Shown one piece after another: positions 5,424 to 64,000 of a DNA stretch of 64,000 bases; within the stretch, counting starts at the first letter, position 1, and the number at the start of each line of letters is the position of its first letter. The position numbers and the translations under genes were made by a program. This DNA comes from a phage. The notes beneath the pieces were generated by a model. That model was not told the DNA's origin and did not search any database. It was given only the letters and a program-made list of their open reading frames with translations. The stretch lies in the sequence record PX393108.1; one strand, written 5' to 3'.

Positions 5424-6209
5424 ATGGCAATTGTAGGTGTTCCTGGCTGGATTGGTGAATCTGCCGTGAATGAAACTGGACAACGTTGGATGGATGCTGC
5501 AATGAAAGCAGTTCGTGTTTCAGTTCCCGGTTGGATGAGCTCAATGGCTGGACAATCTAAAGAAGTATATTATAGCATTGGTGCTAGCAATTCTTATAAT
5601 AAAGACACACTAATAAATTGGATAAAAGCCCAAGGAAGTACTCCTGTTGTTATTACAATTACAGGCAATATCGTTTCTTCATCGACAGGTCAACCATGCT
5701 TAGATTTTCCTAGCTCATTAACTAATGCGTACGTGACACTTAATATCAATTCAGGTGTGCATGTTTGGGGTCGTGGAGGGAATGGTGGAAATAACTCTGC
5801 TGGTGGAGCAGGAGGAACTGCAATAAATAACGGAATTGGAACTAGATTACGTATTAACAACAACGGTGTTATCGCAGGAGGCGGTGGCGGCGGTGGCGGC
5901 GGATACTACTCTCCTTTTTCACAAATGAAATTGACTTTTGGCGGTGGCGGCGGTCGTCCATTTGGTGCTGCTGGCGGCTCTGCTAATATGGAACAAGGTG
6001 CTACCGCTGGTACTATTTCTGCACCCGGTAAAGGGTCTGTTAACGGTATCTATAATGGCGGGAATGGTGGTGATGCCGGAGCTGCAGGAGGTAAATGTAA
6101 TATTCGCGGCCAAGGATCAGAATATAACGGCGGCGCAGCAGGTAAAGCTGTTACTGGTAATGCTCCAACTTGGACTAAAGTTGGTACAATATACGGTTCA
6201 AGAGTATAA
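5424..6209 (+). CDS. 38: Receptor-recognising adhesin gp38 (T2-type, glycine-rich motifs)
   Basis: 261 aa with poly-Gly islands (GGGGGGGGGYY, FGGGGGRPFGAAGG) separated by variable segments; position after gene 37 and before t; T2-family gp38 is a tip adhesin of this architecture, unlike the 183-aa T4 gp38 chaperone. Confidence 0.85.
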   Translation: MAIVGVPGWIGESAVNETGQRWMDAAMKAVRVSVPGWMSSMAGQSKEVYYSIGASNSYNKDTLINWIKAQGSTPVVITITGNIVSSSTGQPCLDFPSSLTNAYVTLNINSGVHVWGRGGNGGNNSAGGAGGTAINNGIGTRLRINNNGVIAGGGGGGGGGYYSPFSQMKLTFGGGGGRPFGAAGGSANMEQGATAGTISAPGKGSVNGIYNGGNGGDAGAAGGKCNIRGQGSEYNGGAAGKAVTGNAPTWTKVGTIYGSRV

Positions 6210-6239
6210 TTTGAATAAATATCCTTAAAAGGAGGGTCT

Positions 6240-6896
6240 ATGGCAGCACCTAGAATATCATTTTCGCCCTCTGATATTCTGTTGGGTGTTCTAGATCGCT
6301 TGTTCAAAGATAATGCTACCGGGAAAGTTCTTGCTTCCCGGGTAGCTGTCGTAATTCTTTTGTTTATAATGGCGATTGTTTGGTATAGGGGAGATAGTTT
6401 CTTTGAGTACTATAAGCAATCAAAGTATGAAACATACAGTGAAATTATTGAAAAGGAAAGAAATGCACGCTTTGAATCTGTCGCCCTGGAACAACTCCAG
6501 ATAGTTCATATATCATCTGAGGCAGACTTTAGTGCGGTGTATTCTTTCCGCCCTAAAAACTTAAACTATTTTGTTGATATTATAGCATATGAAGGAAGAC
6601 TACCTTCAACAATAACCGAAAAATCACTTGGAGGATATCCTGTTGATAAAACTATGGATGAATATACCGTTCATTTAAATGGACGTCATTATTATTCCAA
6701 CTCAAAATTTGCTTTTTTACCGACTAAAAAGCCTACTCCCGAAATAAATTACATGTACAGTTGTCCATATTTTAATTTGGATAATATCTATGCTGGAACA
6801 ATAACCATGTACTGGTATAGAAATGATCATATAAGTAATGACCGCCTTGAATCAATATGTTCTCAGGCGGCCAGAATATTAGGAAGGGCTAAATAA
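6240..6896 (+). CDS. t: Holin t
   Basis: 218 aa; N-terminal TM segment (VAVVILLFIMAIVWY) and large periplasmic domain; matches T4 holin T length and sequence as I recall it. Confidence 0.95.
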   Translation: MAAPRISFSPSDILLGVLDRLFKDNATGKVLASRVAVVILLFIMAIVWYRGDSFFEYYKQSKYETYSEIIEKERNARFESVALEQLQIVHISSEADFSAVYSFRPKNLNYFVDIIAYEGRLPSTITEKSLGGYPVDKTMDEYTVHLNGRHYYSNSKFAFLPTKKPTPEINYMYSCPYFNLDNIYAGTITMYWYRNDHISNDRLESICSQAARILGRAK

Positions 6897-7169
6897 TTAT
6901 TTGTTTGTATACATCTCTAGATATCGATATACACCCTCAAAACCCTCGTTGAATTCGTCGATGAGGGTTTTCTTATCTTCTTGGGTTAATTCAGAAACAA
7001 TTTTACGGAATGAATTCTGATTTAATTTTCTACCTTCATGCGTTACTCCAATCTCATTCAGAAATGCAATAAAATTAGCACGATTCTCAACAATATCTTC
7101 TCTGGAAAATTTAATCAAAATGGACGCAACAGTAATAATTTCACGAACTGTATCAATGTTTTTATTCAT
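6897..7169 (-). CDS. asiA: Anti-sigma-70 factor AsiA
   Basis: 90 aa, MNKNIDTVREIITVASILIKFSREDIVENRANFIAFLNEIGV... matches T4 AsiA. Confidence 0.95.
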   Translation of the reverse strand: MNKNIDTVREIITVASILIKFSREDIVENRANFIAFLNEIGVTHEGRKLNQNSFRKIVSELTQEDKKTLIDEFNEGFEGVYRYLEMYTNK

Positions 7170-7181
7170 TAACTATACCAC

Positions 7182-7334
7182 TCAATTAGTTGACTTTATT
7201 ATAATATCATCAGACGCTTGATTTGTAAACTGGTCTGTGTTATTTTCTTCAAAAATTTTTTCTACGAATTCCTTGAACGACTTACGTTCCTGAGCTACAT
7301 TATGCTCGATTACCTTTTCAAGATTATGACTCAT
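7182..7334 (-). CDS. Small hypothetical protein (50 aa), start overlaps arn stop (ATGA)
   Basis: Hand-translated ORF MSHNLEKVIEHNVAQERKSFKEFVEKIFEENNTDQFTNQASDDIIIKSTN in the arn-asiA gap; below the ORF-track size cut-off. Confidence 0.3.
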   Translation of the reverse strand: MSHNLEKVIEHNVAQERKSFKEFVEKIFEENNTDQFTNQASDDIIIKSTN

Positions 7335-7609
7335 TCGAAATAATCTTCAATTTCGTAATCATGGACATAAATCATTATAGTTTTTAATACATCATCAATA
7401 CTTTTTCCTGGAGCTGGAATTACGTAAAAATATCCCGCCTTTGAGTTATCTTTATAAGTTCCAATCAAGAAATCATTATTCTCGAGATGCAGTTCTTCAA
7501 CTAATTCATTAACAATTGAGTGGTATAAATTTGGTAGAAACTTATATAGCTTTTCTAGAATATCAATTTTGATTGTATATTGAACCACAGATTGAGAATC
7601 AATAATCAT
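7331..7609 (-). CDS. arn: Anti-restriction nuclease Arn (McrBC inhibitor)
   Basis: 92 aa, acidic; length and position next to asiA consistent with T4 Arn. Confidence 0.8.
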   Translation of the reverse strand: MIIDSQSVVQYTIKIDILEKLYKFLPNLYHSIVNELVEELHLENNDFLIGTYKDNSKAGYFYVIPAPGKSIDDVLKTIMIYVHDYEIEDYFE

Positions 7610-7692
7610 AGACCTTCCCCTTATGTTTCTGTTTGCGATTAGATTCTTTAAACGCTTTCTTCTTATCCTTATGAACAGAAGCTTTATTAAAA

Positions 7693-7911
7693 TTATGTTT
7701 TGCGACTAAATTGTTCATAGTGCTGAATTACCTCTCTTAAACATTTGCATGTGAATGAAAACTTTTTAGCTACACCACATTCAAATATATGTTCTCTTAA
7801 ATCACGTGTATCAGTATATCCCATCTCAACGATAAAATGCCGTATTAGATTTTTATCTTTATCATTAAGAGAATTAAAATAATCGGATTTTGAATTAATT
7901 TCCCTGGCCAA
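7693..7911 (-). CDS. Hypothetical early protein (72 aa)
   Basis: ORF with tight stop/start coupling to neighbours; no recognisable motif. Confidence 0.5.
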   Translation of the reverse strand: MAREINSKSDYFNSLNDKDKNLIRHFIVEMGYTDTRDLREHIFECGVAKKFSFTCKCLREVIQHYEQFSRKT

Positions 7912-8191
7912 ATTGAATCACCTTCAGTTGACGTTTTAGTTCTTTTATCATCTCTTCGTTCATCGCAATATAAAGATCGCGTAAAGCAGGCTTTAGCATT
8001 CCATTTACTGGAGAACTAAATGGGCATACATAATCTTTTCCTACGAGCTTTTTAGTGAATTCCATATTACAGAACTGAAATGCCGGTTCATTGGCATAAA
8101 TTCCCCATTTGGTTGACATCATTTTATTGGCATATTCTAATGCCTGGATTTGATTCATAATTCCATCAATTTGAAACTTTTTAATATTCAT
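7895..8191 (-). CDS. Hypothetical early protein (98 aa)
   Basis: ORF packed in the same-strand operon between arn and motA. Confidence 0.55.
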   Translation of the reverse strand: MNIKKFQIDGIMNQIQALEYANKMMSTKWGIYANEPAFQFCNMEFTKKLVGKDYVCPFSSPVNGMLKPALRDLYIAMNEEMIKELKRQLKVIQFGQGN

Positions 8192-8652
8192 TAGTAAAGG
8201 TCCTCAGAGTAAAGTTCTTTTTCACTACCACCACGTTCAATACGCACTTGTCCAGCATAAGTTGCAATAATCATTGCTTCTTCACGTGTCCAATAATTAC
8301 TATATTGGTCAATAAACCCTTGGTCATCATCACAAACTTGTTGAGTAACTAATTGAGGTTTAACTGCATCTAAAACTGCTGCCATATCTTTAGAATAATG
8401 ACGAGCACCTGGAATAACAAGAGTTCGTCCATCTTTTAATTTAAAACGGTTGGCTGCGCAAACAATTCGTCGTTGATACTTTTGGTTTTCATCCCAGTAT
8501 GCAGTCTGCCAACAGATTTCAGGAACTTCATCTAAAACATTTTGTTCTGTGTATTCACCACTGTAAGAAGCTAATTTAGCCGCCAAACTTTCTGGAGTCT
8601 CACGTGACAAAGCTTTATCTAACAGAGCTAAACGTTCTTTAAAAGTTTTCAT
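8191..8652 (-). CDS. Hypothetical early protein (153 aa)
   Basis: ORF with 1-nt stop/start overlap to the downstream gene; no motif recognised. Confidence 0.6.
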
Positions 8653-8993
8653 TTAAACCATCCTTTAATACGCTGCCACAAAGTTTTCTGTTGAGCTTTG
8701 TTAACACCAATTGAGCGAATAACTGGTTGAGATTCCTGGAATTCTTTATAATCAGCAAGGTAAATTTCGTAAGCTGCATCCGTAAATGAACTTATCGCTG
8801 CCATGAAGTTTTTACGTACACCGCCAGGAGCTACTCCGTTGGGTAATTCAGAATTTTCACGAATAATTAAATATAACCCAGCTCTAACCTTAACAATAGT
8901 TCCAAGATAAGCTCCATGGTACCAGATATCCCACCCCTCTTGAGTGGGTTCTGCACAACGACGAAGTTCATTGATAATTTCTAACTTGTTCAT
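8649..8993 (-). CDS. Hypothetical early protein (114 aa)
   Basis: ORF overlapping the downstream start by 4 nt (translational coupling). Confidence 0.6.
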
Positions 8994-46888: not shown

Positions 46889-48571
46889 TTAAACCATTAC
46901 AGTAAATCGACCAACTTTCTTCATTTGAAGATGCTGACCATATGCTTGTGGGTCATGGTCTCTATGCGAAATAACAAAAACATTAGTATTTTTTAAACTA
47001 TCTAAAATAGTTGAAATAGCTTTTACGCCTTCAACATCAGTTGCTGAATCAAAAACTTCATCAAGAATTAGTGTGTTTATTTTAACACCTGAAACTTTTT
47101 CAGCAATATCACGCCAAGTAAATAAAAGAGCAATATCAATTCGTGCTTTTTCGCCTTGACTAAATGAAGCATAACTAAAATCTTCACGACCACGGGATTT
47201 AATTGTCTCATTAAATTCTTCATCTAATGTAAACACATAATCCGCTTCCATTATTTTAAGATAATGGTTAATCTGCTTATTAAATAATGGAATGTACTTT
47301 TTAATAATAGCACCTTTAATACCAGAATCTTTGAGCATATCAGTCAAAATTCCTCTGTGGTATTTTTCCATTACTAAATTAGTTTTTGTCTTAACAATTT
47401 TATCAAGTTCTTCTTGAAGCAGTGCTATTTCATCAGCATGGTCAATAAACTCAGATGATGCTTTTTCTATAGCTGCTTTAACTTTTTTAGCTTTATCTAC
47501 AGTCGTGATTAGAGATTGCTTTTTATTGCGAATATCATTTGCCAACGTCTGCTGGGTTTTAATATTATCTCGGTATTCATCAACAAGAACTTTTAAATTA
47601 TCACGATGTGTTGAAAGCTGTTCAAATGAATGCGTGCATTCAGAAACTTTATCTTTAATTTTAGAAACAACTTTATCACCGGAACTTAATTGTGACAAAC
47701 AGGTTGGACATAATCCACCTTCGTGATACATATTAATAACTTTATTATACGAGTCAATTTTTGATTTAATTAAAAATGCTTCTTGACCGATTTTATTAAA
47801 TGCATCAGTCGGGTCTTCATCCAAAACAATATTAACTAATCTTTCATTAGCTTCTTCTATTTCCGATTTTAGCGTTCTAGCTTCTTTTGCTAAATCATCA
47901 TACATATTCTGCAGACGAGTAAGATTATCACCAGTTAATTTTTTCTGGCGTTCAACGTTATCATTATATATTTTAATTTGCTGGATAATACTATCTTTTT
48001 TAACATCAAGCACTTGGTTTTGTGAATTTAATTCACGTATTAGTGCTTTATTAAGCTTATCCATTTCAGCTAATGTTCCTACCTCGAGCAGGTCTTCCAC
48101 AAGCTTTCTTCGCGCAGGGGTCGACAAACCCATGAAAGGGGTATACCCTGCTGTACCAAGGACAACAATCTGCTTGAAACTGGCATATGACATTCCGATA
48201 AGCTGTTCAAATTCTGCTTGGAAATCTTTACTGCTGGCAGATTCATTAAGACGTGTACCGTTAACGGTGATTTCGAAAACGTTTGGTTTTTGTCCTCTTT
48301 TGATATAGTACTTTTTCTCATCATATTCCATCCACAATTCAACTAAAAGTTCTTTCTTATTTGTGCTGTTTATTAATTGACCTTTCTTTACATCACGAAA
48401 TGGCTTGCCAAAAAGCCCAAATGTGATGGCTTCTAACATAGTAGACTTACCACCGCCATTTCGTCCAGTAATAAGAGTTTTTTGAACCTTATCTAGTTGA
48501 ATGTCAATAGGATTTCCACCTACTGACATTATATTTTGATACCTAACTCGGTTTAGTTTAAAATTCTTCAC
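46889..48571 (-). CDS. 46: Recombination endonuclease subunit gp46 (Rad50/SbcC-like ATPase)
   Basis: 560 aa; Walker A GRNGGGKST, long coiled coil, CxxC hook, Walker B LILDEVFD. Confidence 0.95.
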   Translation of the reverse strand: MKNFKLNRVRYQNIMSVGGNPIDIQLDKVQKTLITGRNGGGKSTMLEAITFGLFGKPFRDVKKGQLINSTNKKELLVELWMEYDEKKYYIKRGQKPNVFEITVNGTRLNESASSKDFQAEFEQLIGMSYASFKQIVVLGTAGYTPFMGLSTPARRKLVEDLLEVGTLAEMDKLNKALIRELNSQNQVLDVKKDSIIQQIKIYNDNVERQKKLTGDNLTRLQNMYDDLAKEARTLKSEIEEANERLVNIVLDEDPTDAFNKIGQEAFLIKSKIDSYNKVINMYHEGGLCPTCLSQLSSGDKVVSKIKDKVSECTHSFEQLSTHRDNLKVLVDEYRDNIKTQQTLANDIRNKKQSLITTVDKAKKVKAAIEKASSEFIDHADEIALLQEELDKIVKTKTNLVMEKYHRGILTDMLKDSGIKGAIIKKYIPLFNKQINHYLKIMEADYVFTLDEEFNETIKSRGREDFSYASFSQGEKARIDIALLFTWRDIAEKVSGVKINTLILDEVFDSATDVEGVKAISTILDSLKNTNVFVISHRDHDPQAYGQHLQMKKVGRFTVMV

Positions 48572-55453: not shown

Positions 55454-55924
55454 TTAATCATGTTTCCACACCCCATCGGTATTTGACCAAAGTCGCTGAT
55501 TATCTGAACCTCGCCACAGCTTTTTGGTCGGAAGATTTTTCTCATACTTCCCATCAATAATAACATCAACATATTTAAGCATTTCTAGTTGTTTAATATC
55601 TTCAAACTTATATCCTGTCCACAACCAAATGCTTTTATTCGGATAAAGATTTTTTACTGTTTGAACAATGCAATGAACAACATCTCGGTTATCAGGATAA
55701 AGAGGGTCTCCTCCAGTTATAGTTAATCCTTCTATATAATCATTATTCAAACATTCAATTAATTGTTCTAGTGTTTCACCAGTGAATGGAACGCCATTTC
55801 TAGCATTCCACGTTGATTTATTATAACACCCTTCGCATTTATGCAAACAACCTGTAACGAAAAGAACGACCCTGCATCCAGGGCCATTCACAAAATCACA
55901 GGGATAAAATCTATCGTAATTCAT
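55454..55924 (-). CDS. nrdG: Anaerobic ribonucleotide reductase activating protein NrdG (radical SAM)
   Basis: 156 aa; CxxxCxxC motif (CLHKCEGCYNK). Confidence 0.9.
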   Translation of the reverse strand: MNYDRFYPCDFVNGPGCRVVLFVTGCLHKCEGCYNKSTWNARNGVPFTGETLEQLIECLNNDYIEGLTITGGDPLYPDNRDVVHCIVQTVKNLYPNKSIWLWTGYKFEDIKQLEMLKYVDVIIDGKYEKNLPTKKLWRGSDNQRLWSNTDGVWKHD

Positions 55925-57738
55925 TGGTGTTTAACCCTATGCATGATTTCTTTATTTTTGCCGAGATTAAATCCGCGTTCATTCGGATTTCCCAAATAAC
56001 CACAAGTTCTTCTTATTGTGTTCATCTTTTTAGGATCAGTTTCTCCACAAATAGAACAAACAAATCCGTTTTCAGTAGGAGTCATTTCATGGGTACTTCC
56101 ACACGTAAAACATTTATCTACTGGCATGTTAACGCCAAAATAATCTAAATGTTGCGCAGCATAATCCCATACAGCCTCAAGACCTTTTAGGTTATTTTTC
56201 ATATCAGGAAGTTCAACATAAGAAATGTGACCACCTGTCGCAATGAAATGATATGGTGCTTCACGAGAAATCTTTTCAAACGGAGTGATATTTTCTTCTA
56301 CTGAAACATGGAAACTGTTAGTGTACCAGCCTTTATCAGTAACATCTTTTACACTTCCATATTTTTCGGTATCAAGTTTACAGAAGCGATAGCACAGGTT
56401 TTCAGCAGGTGTAGAATACAAGCTAAAAGCAAAACCAGTTCTTTCAGTCCACTGCTTAAGACGAGCATTCATTTTAGTTAAAATTTCCTGTCCAATATCA
56501 CGACCGACAAGAATATTCAATTCGTGAATACCAATGTATCCTAAGGACACTGAACTTCTACCGTTTTTAAATAACTCAATTATATCGTCATCAGGTTTAA
56601 GACGAACCCCGAATGCACCTTCTTGGTAAAGAATAGGAGCAACAGTAGCTTTAACTCCTTTTAAGGAACTAATTCTACACATCAATGCTTCAAAACATAA
56701 ATCCATTCTCTCATTGAACAATTCGGCAAATTTCTGTTCATTGAACTGTGTTCCAATATAAGAATCTAGTGCAATGCGAGGAAGATTCAGTGTTACAACA
56801 CCAAGATTATTACGTCCATCAAGAATTTCATTACCAGTCGAATCTTTCCATACACCCAAGAAACTACGACAACCCATTGGAGAAACAGGAATAGATGAAC
56901 CGGTGATAGCTTTATTGTTCTTAGCCGAAATGATGTCAGGATACATTCTTTTACTTGCACATTCTAGAGCAAGCTGCTTAATATCATAGTTCGGATCGTC
57001 TTTATAAAGATTAACACCTTCTTCAACGAACATAACAAGCTTAGGGAAAATAGGAGTTATCCCATCACGACCAAGGCCTTTAATACGATTTTTCAGAATT
57101 GCTTTCTGAATCATTCGTTCAGTCCAGTCAGTTCCCGTACCAAATGTAATTGTTACAAAAGGCGTTTGTCCGTTTGAACTAAAGAGAGTATTTACTTCGT
57201 ATTCATAAGCTTGGAATGCATCGTATACATCTTTTTCTGTTTTAGATTGGGCATAATTCAACGCATCAGCGATTTGCCATTTTTCTGCGTCCTCAATATG
57301 TTTTGCATAGGTGCGTTTAACATAAGGAGAAAGTACTTTGTCTACATTCGCAAAAGTCGTTCCACCATATTGATGGGAAGCAACCTGTGCAGTAATTTGC
57401 GCCATAATTGCAGTAGCAACACCGATTGATTTAGGAGTTTCAATCTGTGCATTACCGAGCTTAAATCCGTTCTCAAGCATTCCTTTTAAATCTACTAAAC
57501 AGCAATTAGTAAATGGAAGAGCAGGGGAATAATCAATATCATGGAAATGAATAATTCCGCTTTCATGCGCTTTCATAATAAAAGACGGGACCATATTTTT
57601 GGCAATGTGTTTAGACACAATACCAGCCATAAGGTCCCGTTGAGTTGGAAAAACACGAGAATCTTTATTAGCATTCTCGTTTAAAAGGTCTTTATTAGTT
57701 TTATGAATCAATCCTTCAATTTCTTTTTCAATTGTCAT
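55921..57738 (-). CDS. nrdD: Anaerobic ribonucleoside-triphosphate reductase NrdD, intron-less
   Basis: 605 aa; C-terminal zinc ribbon and glycyl-radical motif (RRTCGYLG); continuous reading frame. Confidence 0.95.
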   Translation of the reverse strand: MTIEKEIEGLIHKTNKDLLNENANKDSRVFPTQRDLMAGIVSKHIAKNMVPSFIMKAHESGIIHFHDIDYSPALPFTNCCLVDLKGMLENGFKLGNAQIETPKSIGVATAIMAQITAQVASHQYGGTTFANVDKVLSPYVKRTYAKHIEDAEKWQIADALNYAQSKTEKDVYDAFQAYEYEVNTLFSSNGQTPFVTITFGTGTDWTERMIQKAILKNRIKGLGRDGITPIFPKLVMFVEEGVNLYKDDPNYDIKQLALECASKRMYPDIISAKNNKAITGSSIPVSPMGCRSFLGVWKDSTGNEILDGRNNLGVVTLNLPRIALDSYIGTQFNEQKFAELFNERMDLCFEALMCRISSLKGVKATVAPILYQEGAFGVRLKPDDDIIELFKNGRSSVSLGYIGIHELNILVGRDIGQEILTKMNARLKQWTERTGFAFSLYSTPAENLCYRFCKLDTEKYGSVKDVTDKGWYTNSFHVSVEENITPFEKISREAPYHFIATGGHISYVELPDMKNNLKGLEAVWDYAAQHLDYFGVNMPVDKCFTCGSTHEMTPTENGFVCSICGETDPKKMNTIRRTCGYLGNPNERGFNLGKNKEIMHRVKHQ

Positions 57739-58239: not shown

Positions 58240-58416
58240 ATTTATTATTTTCAAGTATTGTAAAACATTCGATGCAATCGCTTATATTGTCGAATCATCT
58301 TTTTAGTAGGACGAGAATAAGTTCCTATACAAGTGGTCATATTAGGGTCAGTAGGACTTCCTTTAATAAAAAGTTTCCAAACCTTACCACCATTTAACTT
58401 TTCAGTATAAATTAAT
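58240..58416 (-). CDS. Small hypothetical protein (58 aa)
   Basis: Hand-translated ORF MKTELIYTEKLNGGKVWKLFIKGSPTDPNMTTCIGTYSRPTKKMIRQYKRLHRMFYNT. Confidence 0.3.
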
Positions 58417-58426
58417 TCGGTTTTCA

Positions 58427-58873
58427 TTAAAACGCTCGGTCAGAAAAAGAAATTTGAGTTTCAAGCCATTCAATATATTCTGCCGCAGCTTGCATCAGGT
58501 TACCTTCATAACCATCGTTATTTTCTTGTGCAGCTAATTTAGCTAATGCATATGAAATGCGTTCACCTTGAAAAGCGGCTTTAGGTTTATGAATAACTTG
58601 ATCAACTCGTTCTACGACCTCTTCAATTTCGCCATTTTCTGCGGATTCAGTATTCCACAAGCACCAATACGTAATTGGCTTATCATAGATGTTAATAATC
58701 TTTCCATCAGAAAGTTCAATTTCAATAATTCCAGTATCAGGTTCTATATCATCTTCGCATTCTTTTGCGAGTTCACGAACTTTAAAGACAGTACCTGCAC
58801 TAAGTTCTGGCCAATAATTACATAGCCCTTTATCAGCACGATTAATTCTAAACCACTTATCTACTGTAATCAT
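58427..58873 (-). CDS. Hypothetical protein (about 148 aa); position compatible with T4 pin
   Basis: Positional inference only; start trimmed to the second Met. Confidence 0.45.
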   Translation of the reverse strand: MITVDKWFRINRADKGLCNYWPELSAGTVFKVRELAKECEDDIEPDTGIIEIELSDGKIINIYDKPITYWCLWNTESAENGEIEEVVERVDQVIHKPKAAFQGERISYALAKLAAQENNDGYEGNLMQAAAEYIEWLETQISFSDRAF

Positions 58874-59328: not shown

Positions 59329-59538
59329 TTAATTTCGCAATTTATTAAGTTCTTCATAATCAATCCAGGATTCTAGTCCTGATGGCAAATCAGATTCAAT
59401 TTCCCAAAGAAGCTCTTCAATTTTCTGAAGACGATCTAATTCTTCGGCTGGAATAGTAACCATTGACGGAGTTCTTGATACACTAATATCGTAAATCATA
59501 TTTACCCCAGTTTGACCATGCAATCGCCGTATTTCCAT
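59329..59538 (-). CDS. Hypothetical protein (69 aa)
   Basis: ORF. Confidence 0.45.
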   Translation of the reverse strand: MEIRRLHGQTGVNMIYDISVSRTPSMVTIPAEELDRLQKIEELLWEIESDLPSGLESWIDYEELNKLRN

Positions 59539-59717
59539 TTAGAAATAGACTTTTCACCGTTAGAATAATAAACTTCGAGTTTAGCACGATTATTTTTAAT
59601 TTGAATAACCTTTGCTGTCATCAAAGTTCCATACCCGTAATAAACTGCAACCTCATCACCTACATATACCGCGCTTCCGCGGTAGTCATGGATATAATCA
59701 GTTCCTTCGAGCATCAT
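59502..59717 (-). CDS. Hypothetical protein (71 aa)
   Basis: ORF with 4-nt overlap to nrdC. Confidence 0.5.
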   Translation of the reverse strand: MMLEGTDYIHDYRGSAVYVGDEVAVYYGYGTLMTAKVIQIKNNRAKLEVYYSNGEKSISKWKYGDCMVKLG

Positions 59718-59978: not shown

Positions 59979-60221
59979 TTATTCCTTAATTCCTAGTACT
60001 TGTTTAAAAGTCTCGTCGTAATCAAGACTTTGACCCGTTTGTTCTTTATGTTTGTATATAATATCACTTACTTCTGATAGCATATTTTTATATGAACGAG
60101 TTAAAGCAGATTTAAGCACGCTGTATCTATCAGGAAATTTACCGTGTTCATTATAATACGCTATTGCTAATTCACGGACTGCCTTTTCAGCAATCTCCAT
60201 ATATTCTTTACGCTTGGTCAT
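59979..60221 (-). CDS. Hypothetical protein (80 aa)
   Basis: ORF. Confidence 0.5.
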
Positions 60222-60525
60222 TTTCTTCTCGGTTAAATCGGTGTTTACAATGACGACATTTATAACGAAGATTACTAGTCTGCCAATGAATTAATTGAAC
60301 CTGTTCAGTACCACATTTTGGACAGTTCGGAACATTCTTAGAAACCCTTTCGCGGCGTTCAACCATAACCATAATGGCATCCCAGGCTGGAGGTTTAAAA
60401 TCTAAATCATCACAACCATGAATCTTTCCACGCATTTCCAGATCGTCTTCTTCACCAGCCATAATAATTTTAATTAGACTGGAATTACTTGAAGCTGCAA
60501 TATCTTCTAATAGACGCTTTTTCAT
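60208..60525 (-). CDS. Zinc-ribbon protein (105 aa)
   Basis: CPKCG…CRHCKHRF C4 motif. Confidence 0.55.
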
Positions 60526-61451
60526 TTCAATACCTCAATAGCATTACGTAAACCATTTGCTTTTGCATTAAGAGCTTTTAACAATTTAGTGTGTTCGGCA
60601 ATTTGGGCTTCAACTTCAATCAAACGAGCATTGAGATATTCGCGTTCTTCGCTCAAGCTATCAACCTTTTCTACTTTAGGTTCTTTTACAACTGGCTTAT
60701 ATGTATTAGGGTTCTTCAGTTTAATTAGAATACGTGAACTGTATAACATTGAACCATTATTTTCGATTTCGTCATACATTTCTACTACGTCCATGATTTT
60801 TAACATCATGCGGAGTTTATAAGATAACGAACGAATAGTTTTGTTGTGCTTATTAATTTCTCTAGCTGTCATGGTGCCGAGATTACGTGAGTAATAATAA
60901 GGAACCTGGATATTAATTAATACTGATGAACCACCTGGCTTGTGTGTTACTTCATCAGCAATAACCCAGTCCTTAACATGAACTGTATTTGTACGGTCAT
61001 CGCCCGCGGTAAATAGTTTACGAGCATGCTTAAAAAGCATATTCACTTGGTCATTGAATTGACAAGCAAATTTATCAGCAAATTTAGTTTCAGGAATGGT
61101 AGATAACCAATCAGCCAAATGGGTCTTTTTAACATCGTTAACAATAGTAAATTCAACCAAATCAGTTATAGATGTCTCAGATTTAATAAAGCTCGGCTTC
61201 ATAAAGTTTTTAATGTTATCGCGAGCTACAGTAGAAGATAACATACGAGAACGTTTAAACCATTGAAGCAAATTGCCCAACGAATGAGAATAAGCGTTCT
61301 GTGTATCTTTACAGATATGATTTTCCTGGCCAACATACTGAAGGAAATCACGAAGAATATTATTGATTACTGCTCTATGTCCTATCTGATAATTACGATG
61401 TTTAGTAATAAGACTGTCAAAATAATCAATATAATGTTTACGAGTTTTCAT
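60522..61451 (-). CDS. Hypothetical protein (309 aa) with C-terminal coiled coil; member of a 3-gene paralogous family
   Basis: N-terminus MKTRKHYIDYF… and heptad-rich tail resemble the two upstream ORFs. Confidence 0.6.
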   Translation of the reverse strand: MKTRKHYIDYFDSLITKHRNYQIGHRAVINNILRDFLQYVGQENHICKDTQNAYSHSLGNLLQWFKRSRMLSSTVARDNIKNFMKPSFIKSETSITDLVEFTIVNDVKKTHLADWLSTIPETKFADKFACQFNDQVNMLFKHARKLFTAGDDRTNTVHVKDWVIADEVTHKPGGSSVLINIQVPYYYSRNLGTMTAREINKHNKTIRSLSYKLRMMLKIMDVVEMYDEIENNGSMLYSSRILIKLKNPNTYKPVVKEPKVEKVDSLSEEREYLNARLIEVEAQIAEHTKLLKALNAKANGLRNAIEVLK

Positions 61452-61503
61452 GTTCTTCTCACTTGGTTAATGATTTATACTCCGAGCCATCCTTGGCTTT
61501 AAA

Positions 61504-62505
61504 TTACTTAATTAACTGTAAAGCTTGTTCCAAACGATCAAGGCGATTAACAGATTCTTCCCAAATCCTTTTAGCCTTCTCATATTCTTTCTGCGCTTTA
61601 TTAGAAATTTCTAGAACTTCTTTATAAGCTTTTTCTAGCGCAATAACTTCTGGACGAATTTCTACCGGTTCAGGCGAATCATCAAGATTATCCATTAGTT
61701 CCTCAAGTGTAGTTTCTTCTTTAGGAGTATTCACAATTTCATCACATTTTTGTTGGTAAATTTCTTTATCAGTCGGTGAGTACGTACGTTTCACTTCACG
61801 AAGGCTAATTATAATTTTATATCCTTCCCAACCACACATATTTTTGAAAGGATATGTATGAATACTTTTTACGGTTTCCATACAGCCCAAAGCCGCCTCT
61901 AATTGATAAGTTATAGTGCTAGCAATTGAGAAAAATTTATTAATATTCTTTTGGTTAGCGTTTGGTGTAAAAAATCCATAATTCACAAAAATAGCTACTT
62001 TATTTTTATCAAGCTCATATTCTTTTACGATAATCATATCAGAAGCCAAAGGATGAATTTGACGATAATCGCCATAACATAATTTAGAAGCTGATTTTAG
62101 AATCTGTCCTTTGAAAAGCCTGAAATTACTAATCCAACGACGAGTAAAAATATTCTCAGGGTCTTCTTTATTATTAAGATGATAAGAATTAACATCACCG
62201 AACCAATTATATCCTACTACATCTTTAGTTCGTTTAATTTCTTTCCCAAATTTACCAAGAATATCTCTGTTGACTAAGTATGAAAGAAGACGAGACCCTT
62301 TAAAGGTTTTCTTAATGTCATCTTTATCTGTACGACTAGAAATTTCACGAACTTCGTGAATAAATCTGCTGGAAGAAACAATGCTTACATCAATATTATT
62401 GAGCCATTGATTGATAATAGAAAGAACACTATTCTGACTAGACATAGGTTTAACTTTATCATCAATAACGCTATTGAATGATTTGATATATTCGTTACGA
62501 GTCAT
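61504..62505 (-). CDS. Hypothetical protein (about 333 aa) with C-terminal coiled coil; paralogous family
   Basis: ORF-track start lies inside an early promoter; trimmed to MTRNEYIKSF…. Confidence 0.6.
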   Translation of the reverse strand: MTRNEYIKSFNSVIDDKVKPMSSQNSVLSIINQWLNNIDVSIVSSSRFIHEVREISSRTDKDDIKKTFKGSRLLSYLVNRDILGKFGKEIKRTKDVVGYNWFGDVNSYHLNNKEDPENIFTRRWISNFRLFKGQILKSASKLCYGDYRQIHPLASDMIIVKEYELDKNKVAIFVNYGFFTPNANQKNINKFFSIASTITYQLEAALGCMETVKSIHTYPFKNMCGWEGYKIIISLREVKRTYSPTDKEIYQQKCDEIVNTPKEETTLEELMDNLDDSPEPVEIRPEVIALEKAYKEVLEISNKAQKEYEKAKRIWEESVNRLDRLEQALQLIK

Positions 62506-62529
62506 ATTAATCTCCTCAATAGAAAGTAA

Positions 62530-62565
62530 GAACATTATACCACATCCTTGTGGCAAAGTAAACTA
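62530..62565 (-). promoter_or_regulatory. T4-type early promoter (-35 GTTTACT, 17 nt, -10 TATAAT)
   Basis: Minus strand GTTTACTTTGCCACAAGGATGTGGTATAAT, the same core as the promoter at 17821-17860. Confidence 0.6.
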
Positions 62566-63591
62566 GTTTAGTGCATTTAGTGCATTGTTCAGTTTAGAAC
62601 GTTGCTTCGTAAGATTTTTGACTTTTTCTTGAGCTTTTTCTAGCATCTTTTCAGCTTCTAGCACTTCATTAGTTGCTTTAACGAGTTCATCATCTACTGC
62701 CTTGATAGACTTCTCAATCGCATCCGCGTGCCATTTTTCAACAGGTTTAAGACTCGGATTTTCAACAGGAAGAAAATTCACTTTATTGAATTTCCATGCA
62801 TCCTTATTACCTGAACTATACATCCAAAATTTAGGATCGTTTGATGAGTAATTGGATAAATTTAAATTTAAGTTATCTTGCACTTCTTGCTTTTTCTCTT
62901 GCGTGACTTCGTCCTTTCTCAAAAAATCGTATTTAAATGAAACGATCATATCAAGTTCATATGTTGTTGTGTCTAATTTAAATCGTTCGAAATGCTGTGA
63001 AATCTTAGACTGAACAGCAGCAACAACGTCCATATACTTAAATGCTTCTGTCAACTGTGATTTAAGGCATTCGCAAATTGAAAGAGAATTTTTTGTATTA
63101 GGTTTAAAGCTAATTCGTGCAGTTCTGTTATTTTCTTTTAATGGTCTTACTTCCATCTGAAGAGTATAACCATCAAATTTCAGATTCTTTAAGTTAATAT
63201 CAGAACCTTTTAATCGACTCGCAGTTGATAAAATTTGCTTTAATTGTCTACGGAACAGAGCAATAAATCTCCATTCAATACGATAATGATTTGGATTGAA
63301 AAATCCAGATGATAAATCGACCTTACTTTGACCAACGCCTTGAACAAATAGAGGATTTTTATAATCGATAGTTTTACAGAAATCGGTGAGCTGCTCACGA
63401 GCCGTCATTTGTGTAATATAACCCGCTTTACTAAAATTACGCACCCATTCACTGCTATTCGTATACTTAAAGTGATGAATAACACGATTAACTTTATCAG
63501 GGTCTAAATTATTTTCACACAAAAATGTCATAACATCACGAGTATAACTGGCATTACGAACCATATCTTCAATTTGAGAACGAGTTTTCAT
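62563..63591 (-). CDS. Hypothetical protein (342 aa) with C-terminal coiled coil; paralogous family
   Basis: N-terminus MKTRSQIEDMVRN…; tail …EVLEAEKMLEKAQEKVKNLTKQRSKLNNALNALN. Confidence 0.6.
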   Translation of the reverse strand: MKTRSQIEDMVRNASYTRDVMTFLCENNLDPDKVNRVIHHFKYTNSSEWVRNFSKAGYITQMTAREQLTDFCKTIDYKNPLFVQGVGQSKVDLSSGFFNPNHYRIEWRFIALFRRQLKQILSTASRLKGSDINLKNLKFDGYTLQMEVRPLKENNRTARISFKPNTKNSLSICECLKSQLTEAFKYMDVVAAVQSKISQHFERFKLDTTTYELDMIVSFKYDFLRKDEVTQEKKQEVQDNLNLNLSNYSSNDPKFWMYSSGNKDAWKFNKVNFLPVENPSLKPVEKWHADAIEKSIKAVDDELVKATNEVLEAEKMLEKAQEKVKNLTKQRSKLNNALNALN

Positions 63592-63599
63592 GGTATTCC

Positions 63600-64000
63600 T
63601 TAAGATTTAAGTAAATCAACAATTTTAATTAACTTTTCACGCTCAGATTTAGCTTTACTACTCAATCCAGATAGTCTGAAAATTTCATCGTCATATTGTT
63701 GAATAGAAATATTCAGCTCTTCAATCTGCTTATTAAAATAATCAATTTGTTCAGAATGTTTTTCGTTACTACGAACTGGTACAGGTTTTGTAGGCAATTT
63801 AGTTGAACTGGATTCATCCGGGCGATAAATTAAAATACAACTTGAACCAATAGGGCATTTTGCACCAGATGAATATTCTAATGTTCCAGCTTCTTTTAAA
63901 ACTTCAAAAGCTAAACAGAGATGATGCCCCATATTAACATAATCTGTAGAGTGAGCTCTGATATAATAATCATCTCCACGAATACTAAATTTAAAGCATT
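63600..64000 (-). CDS. Hypothetical protein, 3' portion; frame stays open to the window edge, so the start lies beyond position 64000
   Basis: No in-frame stop upstream of the first ATG through the end of the window; coiled-coil-like C-terminus. Confidence 0.5.
   Translation of the reverse strand, partial: CFKFSIRGDDYYIRAHSTDYVNMGHHLCLAFEVLKEAGTLEYSSGAKCPIGSSCILIYRPDESSSTKLPTKPVPVRSNEKHSEQIDYFNKQIEELNISIQQYDDEIFRLSGLSSKAKSEREKLIKIVDLLKS

Follow-up and report, generated by a model that had tools for sequence, protein, structure and literature searches.

A tandem array of diverged head-and-tail paralogues around nrdC.5, the T4 gene that overcomes Dsr1

The 64,000-nucleotide stretch of phage DNA considered here (sequence record PX393108.1; hereafter the window) is a segment of a Tequatrovirus genome. 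Its interval 59700-64000 matches 691 phage records in a megablast search, the top match (97.8%) being Escherichia phage GEP001. Four consecutive genes lie in this interval, which the annotated T4 reference and phage SA20RB identify as nrdC.6, nrdC.5, nrdC.4 and nrdC.3. We report that the four are diverged tandem paralogues forming one superfamily, with nrdC.6 as its probable fourth member, and that the array so formed includes the orthologue of a T4 gene already known to counter a host defence system. The window ends inside nrdC.6, and the full-length protein (296 amino acids, aa) was taken from SA20RB, a 97.6%-identical relative. The features of the locus are as follows.

63600-64000, minus strand: nrdC.6, 3' part; C-terminal 133 of 296 aa, the gene running past the window end; linker and heptad tail ending in ...KLIKIVDLLKS
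62563-63591, minus strand: nrdC.5; 342 aa; Pfam DUF7235 (PF23882); tail helix at about 283-341
62534-62562, minus strand: T4 early-type promoter GTTTACTTTGCCACAAGGATGTGGTATAATG, directly upstream of nrdC.4
61504-62505, minus strand: nrdC.4; 333 aa from ATG; phrog_1435
60522-61451, minus strand: nrdC.3; 309 aa; phrog_1435; closest paralogue of nrdC.4
60208-60525, minus strand: nrdC.2; 105 aa; acidic helical N-terminal part and C-terminal C4 zinc ribbon

The order of transcription is nrdC.6, nrdC.5, nrdC.4, nrdC.3, nrdC.2, nrdC.1 and nrdC. The promoter at 62562-62534 (GTTTAC-N-TGGTATAAT) matches the consensus at 10 of 12 positions and carries a TG extension; in phage SA20RB this site bears an early-promoter annotation. 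It heads the run from nrdC.4 through nrdC.3, nrdC.2 and nrdC.1 to nrdC. The array consists of early accessory genes of a Tequatrovirus, in agreement with an earlier note on this DNA, made from the letters alone, which had placed it in a phage accessory region. The length of nrdC.4 was set at 333 aa because the ATG at 62505 is preceded by a GAGGAG ribosome-binding site, while a TTG start that would give 350 aa falls inside the early promoter and was rejected. An Rfam scan of the region returned zero family matches.

The gene next to the array, nrdC.2, encodes a zinc ribbon of the form CPKC-x18-CRHC, whose cysteines C68, C71, C90 and C93 are invariant across four genera. The earlier note had described a C4 zinc-ribbon protein preceding the array; the ribbon is real but its gene lies downstream, since all the genes are on the minus strand and are transcribed from nrdC.6 toward nrdC. 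The start of nrdC.2 overlaps the stop of nrdC.3 by 4 nucleotides (ATGA), and an overlap of 1-4 nucleotides with the preceding nrdC.3/4-type gene is kept in the four genera. All matches of nrdC.2 to specific zinc-ribbon families in Pfam and NCBIfam were below cut-off, including weak resemblances to the ribbons of TFIIS, IS1595 and Cas12f.

Existing family collections treat the products of the array as separate entities. The nrdC.5 protein matches PF23882 (DUF7235) over the whole profile (positions 1-307 of 307; E 9.3e-127, 423 bits, cut-off 30) and is 96% identical, at full length, to T4 nrdC.5 (NP_049703). The gene order nrdC.6-nrdC.5-nrdC.4 is the same as in T4, so that orthology of nrdC.5 follows from sequence and position together. 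Both nrdC.3 (E 1.8e-116) and nrdC.4 (E 2.1e-165) match phrog_1435 at full length, and homologues 98-99% identical to nrdC.4 carry PF26897. For nrdC.6, of which the last 133 residues lie inside the window, the full-length relative matches phrog_2257 (E 1.3e-152), and homologues 97-98% identical carry PF26899. In sum, window proteins or homologues 98-99% identical to them match PF26897, PF26899 and PHROGs 1435, 2351 and 2257 at full length. Pfam keeps three separate families (PF26897, PF23882/DUF7235 and PF26899); in PHROGs, nrdC.3 and nrdC.4 share a family and nrdC.5 and nrdC.6 each have their own. Thus the nrdC.3/4, nrdC.5 and nrdC.6 types stand in these collections as distinct families of unknown function, whereas profile-profile comparison joins them here as one superfamily. 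Many GenBank phage records name nrdC.2 to nrdC.6 "thioredoxin". A Pfam scan found no thioredoxin-family match for the nrdC.2-nrdC.6 proteins, and the name was apparently carried over from nearby nrdC; the present analysis corrects this widespread mislabelling.

To examine relationships among the four proteins, sequences of four Tevenvirinae genera were combined with metagenomic homologues into cross-genus profiles, and these were compared by hhalign. By direct BLASTP, nrdC.3 and nrdC.4 align with 25% identity over 270 residues (E 7e-10), and nrdC.4 and nrdC.5 give only a hint of similarity (E 0.03). The profiles reach further. The nrdC.3 and nrdC.4 profiles match with 98% probability (E 4e-13), and nrdC.5 matches nrdC.3/4 with 94.5% probability over 157-167 columns (E 7.5e-8). 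Against nrdC.3/4 or nrdC.5 alone, nrdC.6 gave E values of 5e-5 to 7e-3; against a merged nrdC.3/4/5 profile it reached 92.5% probability over 164 columns (E 4.8e-7). Reversed sequences, nrdC.10 and nrdC.11, used as controls, gave E values of at least 0.03. When the last 60 residues of each protein were deleted to remove the tails, the E values became 2e-14 for nrdC.3 against nrdC.4, 5e-7 to 4.5e-6 for nrdC.5 against nrdC.3/4 (87-92% probability), 4e-3 to 6e-3 for nrdC.6 against the individual families, 2.2e-5 for nrdC.6 against the merged profile and at least 0.08 for the controls. Since the hits persist in the absence of these residues, the similarity resides in the N-terminal heads and not in the tails alone.

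The alignments are, in addition, colinear and mutually consistent: residue 87 of nrdC.6 corresponds to residue 50 of nrdC.5 and residue 65 of nrdC.4. Three common motifs occur in the same order, K.SRLLS..V.RD.L..FGK, A[SA][RK]L..G.D and a helix with L..A...M..V. These properties identify all four proteins as diverged paralogues. The N-termini conform to M(K)TR..[YI]I..F, with Thr-Arg at positions 2-4 invariant in the nrdC.3/4 and nrdC.5 cross-genus alignments, and the codons ATG AAA ACT CGT, along with their upstream context, are common to nrdC.3 and nrdC.5. In-register vestiges of DNA similarity are seen at gene starts and in the tails. The earlier note had proposed consecutive paralogues with similar N-termini (MKTR...) and a possible fourth member at 63600-64000. 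The paralogy is confirmed within the N-terminal domains, the likeness of the N-termini is genuine and the fourth member is now probable, from the match to the merged profile and from a heptad tail (see below). The note's suggested comparison with genes of the nrdC.10/nrdC.11 type led nowhere: these give no BLASTP hit and, against the superfamily profile, hhalign E values of 0.07-0.5, at control level. A relationship with them was rejected; the genes are nrdC.3-nrdC.6.

It could be argued that the open reading frames (ORFs) resemble each other only through coiled-coil or compositional bias and that unrelated accessory genes simply lie side by side in the array. Most pairs give no significant BLASTP match, Pfam and PHROGs retain three separate families, and the nrdC.3/4 profile, used in an exhaustive hidden Markov model (HMM) search against 1.84 billion representatives, returned only 9 proteins, with no bridge to nrdC.5 or nrdC.6. 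Against this, the profile-profile hits fall in the heads and are still there without the last 60 residues, they are colinear and consistent between families, the controls give E values of at least 0.03 and the N-terminal Thr-Arg motif is common. We regard such an explanation as very improbable, the tail-removed comparisons having largely refuted it already.

All four proteins follow one plan: a head of about 220-240 residues, probably alpha/beta in each, is joined by a disordered linker to an amphipathic, heptad-bearing C-terminal helix of about 45-60 residues. Structure prediction with AlphaFold covered nrdC.4 and nrdC.5. In the nrdC.4 model (mean predicted local distance difference test score, pLDDT, 83.9) a helical N-terminal part (1-84) leads into an alpha/beta core built of beta-hairpins and helices (88-235); a linker predicted with low confidence (240-284) and a single tail helix (285-332) follow. 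The nrdC.5 model is poor (pLDDT 48.5) because the underlying alignment is shallow; at this low confidence it shows a beta-beta-alpha-beta-beta arrangement, a linker and a long helix (283-341), with its elements in the same order as in nrdC.4. The identity of the two folds therefore rests on profile comparison combined with the order of secondary-structure elements.

The heptad-bearing tails described in the earlier note stood up to testing. Long helices are present in both models, and the frequency of Leu, Ile, Val and Met (LIVM) at a and d positions, compared with 2000 shuffles, is significant for nrdC.3 (p<0.0005), nrdC.5 (p=0.005) and nrdC.6 (p=0.017). The nrdC.4 tail does not pass this strict LIVM test, its core positions being occupied by Ala, Tyr and Trp; judged by eye, it passes only when these are counted as core residues. 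In each paralogue lineage, conservation across genera is highest in the tail: tail and core identities are 70% versus 30% for nrdC.4, 64% versus 41% for nrdC.6, 41% versus 29% for nrdC.5 and 80% versus 62% for nrdC.3. Between paralogues the tails are unlike each other (17.5% identity between nrdC.3 and nrdC.4). The heads are basic in all four proteins (isoelectric point, pI, 9.3-9.5), and the tails are neutral to acidic.

No enzyme, nuclease, mobile-element or known defence family scored above threshold in Pfam, NCBIfam or PADLOC, and the heads have no relative in the PDB by sequence or fold, sequence searches of the PDB with both family profiles yielding only compositionally biased hits to designed repeats. 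The earlier note had asked whether the N-terminal domains have nuclease or DNA-binding folds; no nuclease and no recognised DNA-binding fold was found. Hydrophobic residues, Gly and Arg/Lys make up most of the invariant positions, and there is no conserved constellation of His, Asp, Cys or Glu. Residues 30-86 of nrdC.3 show a weak, sub-threshold match to the N-terminal SAM-like core-binding domain of tyrosine recombinases (Pfam E 0.063) and to an NCBIfam XerD-type model (E 0.0014; 18 bits, cut-off 279). This resemblance may be due to chance.

By tblastn, each gene is found in 554-742 phage records, all from Tevenvirinae coliphage genera. The most divergent members of the families (P0122 and P0057), used as tblastn queries, retrieved nothing outside four Tevenvirinae coliphage genera, and a search for loci related to nrdC.6 gave only four, all near-identical. 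At the level of sequence, therefore, the families are confined to these genera. The array contains all four types in Tequatrovirus, the nrdC.6, nrdC.5 and nrdC.4 types in Gaprivervirus and Dhakavirus, and the nrdC.6, nrdC.5 and nrdC.3 types in Mosigvirus. Its position is syntenic across genera and nrdC.2 follows directly after it in every genus examined. This conserved synteny and the lack of any domain match in Pfam, NCBIfam, PADLOC or the PDB speak against mobile-element remnants, which the earlier note had mentioned as one possibility. An extra 71-aa ORF lies between the nrdC.6-type and nrdC.5-type genes in Gaprivervirus (locus positions 5733-5948) and Dhakavirus (5856-6071); it is absent from Tequatrovirus and Mosigvirus.

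The heads evolve far faster than the neighbouring genes. Identity between genera is 20-25% for nrdC.5, 32-46% for nrdC.6 and 45-53% for nrdC.4, compared with 86-90% for NrdC and 82-88% for endonuclease VII. Within Tequatrovirus, nrdC.3 is dimorphic: about 360 records are at least 90% identical to the window, and a second class, which includes T4, is about 60% identical. The allele in the window is about 60% identical to T4's and 75-78% identical to the Mosigvirus copies, with flanking genes 87-100% identical. This pattern suggests exchange between genera or balancing selection.

Natural rearrangements are also found. In a protein from a 167-kb contig (P0056), residues 146 to about 271 of nrdC.5 are fused in frame to residues from about 138 to 309 of nrdC.3, with nrdC.4 removed; the junction is a short ...FN..VN stretch common to both paralogues. 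In phage ACG-C40 (NC_019399/JN986846, approximately 47512-47923), residues 1-69 of nrdC.5 are joined to residues 238-309 of nrdC.3. The paralogues may recombine. Taken with the T4 deletion clones described below, these nrdC.5::nrdC.3 fusions show that the array is dispensable and prone to deletion. The T4 reference (NC_000866; 10067-10894) carries a 1-nucleotide deletion in nrdC.6, reading GAGCTG-ATATT where the window (63600-63800) and SA20RB read GAGCTGAATATT. The deletion shifts the frame of the last approximately 40 codons, so that the coiled-coil tail is lost and the protein has 275 aa in place of 296. This is either a mutation of the laboratory strain or an old sequencing error.

Relatives that sequence comparison scarcely detects were found by fold. 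A Foldseek search of predicted viral structures with the nrdC.4 model returned uncharacterised Straboviridae proteins of about 300-370 aa with probability 1.0 and E values of 1e-7 to 1e-4. They come from many phages of this family, among them Acinetobacter phage Acj61 (p120 and p121), Pectobacterium phage PM2, Klebsiella phage Mineola, Erwinia phage Cronus and Serratia phage PS2. These relatives are only 10-19% identical to nrdC.4, and sequence profiles barely reach them (E 6e-3 with a single sequence, 3.5e-4 with a profile of the pair). The genomic position was examined in Acj61. In this phage, a member of the subfamily Twarogvirinae, both hits are adjacent genes located between nrdC and nrdC.10; their products have significant heptad tails (p of 0.001 or less), and the motifs of the superfamily can just be made out, in the same order. 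Because the Acj61 pair combines the same predicted fold, the same locus and heptad tails, tandem head-plus-tail proteins at this site appear to be an old feature of Straboviridae that has diverged beyond ordinary sequence detection. Acj61 also carries, at 6229-8938 of the stretch examined, genes for a nicotinamide phosphoribosyltransferase and a ribose-phosphate pyrophosphokinase side by side; this pair could help rebuild nicotinamide adenine dinucleotide (NAD+).

The earlier note had called the function of these proteins unknown, with a role as sensors or decoys for host defences as one option. For nrdC.5 the first statement is out of date (PMC9391042). A T4 clone with gene deletions lost the ability to infect E. 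coli ECOR17; deletion of dsr1 in the host restored infection, and cloned dsr1 protected MG1655 against the T4 deletion clone (PMC9391042). Expression of nrdC.5 alone, in trans, restored the infectivity of the deletion clone in the face of Dsr1 (Srikant, Guegler and Laub, eLife 2022; PMC9391042). The same work names nrdC.5 as an early gene (PMC9391042). The link to host defences accordingly holds for this one member, with the activity shown, genetically only, for T4's own copy, of which the 342-aa protein of the window is the 96%-identical orthologue. Dsr1 is an NAD-depleting sirtuin NADase whose sensor domain, common to Avs7, is activated by the phage major capsid protein (PMC13581612). The nrdC.3, nrdC.4 and nrdC.6 proteins are remote paralogues of T4 NrdC.5 with the same head-linker-tail plan (15-25% identity), and with a paralogue already published as anti-Dsr1 they become good candidates for anti-defence genes.

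According to two reports (PMC10973363, PMC10981675), the phage protein DSAD1 binds the defence-associated sirtuin DSR2 in its sensor region and keeps a virion protein from activating it; a functional analogy with nrdC.5 is possible. On this model, the nrdC proteins would be made early, before the capsid protein appears, and would form oligomers by way of the coiled coils particular to each lineage. The variable heads would bind a host immune sensor ahead of its trigger and block activation. The proposed target of nrdC.5 would be the Dsr1 sensor, blocked much as DSAD1 blocks DSR2, and nrdC.3, nrdC.4 and nrdC.6 would act likewise on other targets. The product of nrdC.2 may partner the last paralogue, as the translational coupling of the two genes suggests. 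Taken as a whole, this explanation, in which oligomeric early binders with variable heads block host immune sensors and the paralogues are aimed at different targets, seems to us about evenly balanced between being right and being wrong.

Several observations weigh against it. The evidence that nrdC.5 acts against Dsr1 is genetic only, so that its action could be indirect, and no follow-up work on nrdC.5 was found in the literature searched by gene name, locus tag and accession; the same search uncovered no work on nrdC.3, nrdC.4 or nrdC.6. The support for nrdC.6 as a paralogue depends on the merged profile, given the range of its E values against single families, and the nrdC.5 model is of poor quality. 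Many T4 accessory genes diverge fast, and such divergence is no proof of an arms race. Finally, basic heads and a coupled zinc-ribbon gene fit nucleic-acid binding as well.

The last point leads to a different explanation, in which the proteins, together with nrdC.2, are nucleic-acid-binding early regulators acting on host or phage DNA or RNA, and the effect of nrdC.5 on Dsr1 is indirect, for example through an altered timing or level of the capsid protein or of host gene expression. The pI of all four heads is consistent with this, as are the sub-threshold tyrosine-recombinase matches of nrdC.3 residues 30-86, the C4 ribbon of the coupled nrdC.2 with its weak likeness to the TFIIS, IS1595 and Cas12f ribbons, and the pairing of nrdC.2 with its preceding gene, conserved in four genera. 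We consider this explanation unlikely.

Given that Dsr1 is an NADase and that phage NAD-reconstitution systems counteract it (PMC13464706), nrdC.5 and its paralogues might alternatively oppose NAD depletion enzymatically, restoring NAD+ or destroying a signal in the manner of NARP pathways. No enzyme family was matched in Pfam, NCBIfam, PADLOC or the PDB, however, the invariant positions lack the polar constellation noted above, and divergence of the heads down to 20-25% identity would be unusual for a metabolic enzyme. An enzymatic role is thus highly improbable. The heads might instead be soluble mimics, or decoys, of virion proteins that occupy the sensors of phage structural proteins; a weak resemblance to a tail terminator is all that points this way, and we think it quite doubtful.

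The proposal of sensor-blocking heads can be extended into a bolder form, which we put forward as tentative and rather less than probable. The nrdC.3-nrdC.6 proteins and their relatives in the same slot of other Straboviridae would together constitute an ancient, hyper-divergent superfamily of modular anti-immune proteins, each with a lineage-specific oligomerising tail and a fast-evolving, target-recognising head, and each paralogue would be directed at a different bacterial pattern-recognition sensor, Dsr1 in the case of nrdC.5, possibly by virion-protein mimicry. The array would then be to the phage what a defence island is to bacteria, and its position alone would suffice to read it.

All of these genes are known from T4, and an anti-defence role is published for nrdC.5, so that the array is not a new kind of system. 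In the literature searched, we found no description of the four-way paralogy, of the unification of these genes into one head/tail superfamily or of their positional conservation. NrdC.5, the only reported T4 counter-measure to Dsr1, was hitherto without recognised relatives and is here one of four tandem paralogues. The conserved part of these proteins is the tail and the variable part the head, and a distant T4-like phage has the same predicted fold at this locus. For screens against defence systems the array offers three candidates, nrdC.3, nrdC.4 and nrdC.6, and two allele classes of nrdC.3, and the head/tail layout lends itself to a domain-swap design for finding specificity determinants. 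The position of the locus suggests where similar genes may sit in other Straboviridae.

Two further observations concern genes beyond the array. In the window, nrdD (55921-57738) is an uninterrupted ORF of 605 aa; its T4 and SA20RB counterparts are interrupted by a group I intron with the I-TevII homing endonuclease. Small ORFs of 58, 69 and 71 aa, at 58251-58427 and 59329-59717, adjoin pin and replace T4 gene 49.3, a local replacement of accessory genes between close relatives.

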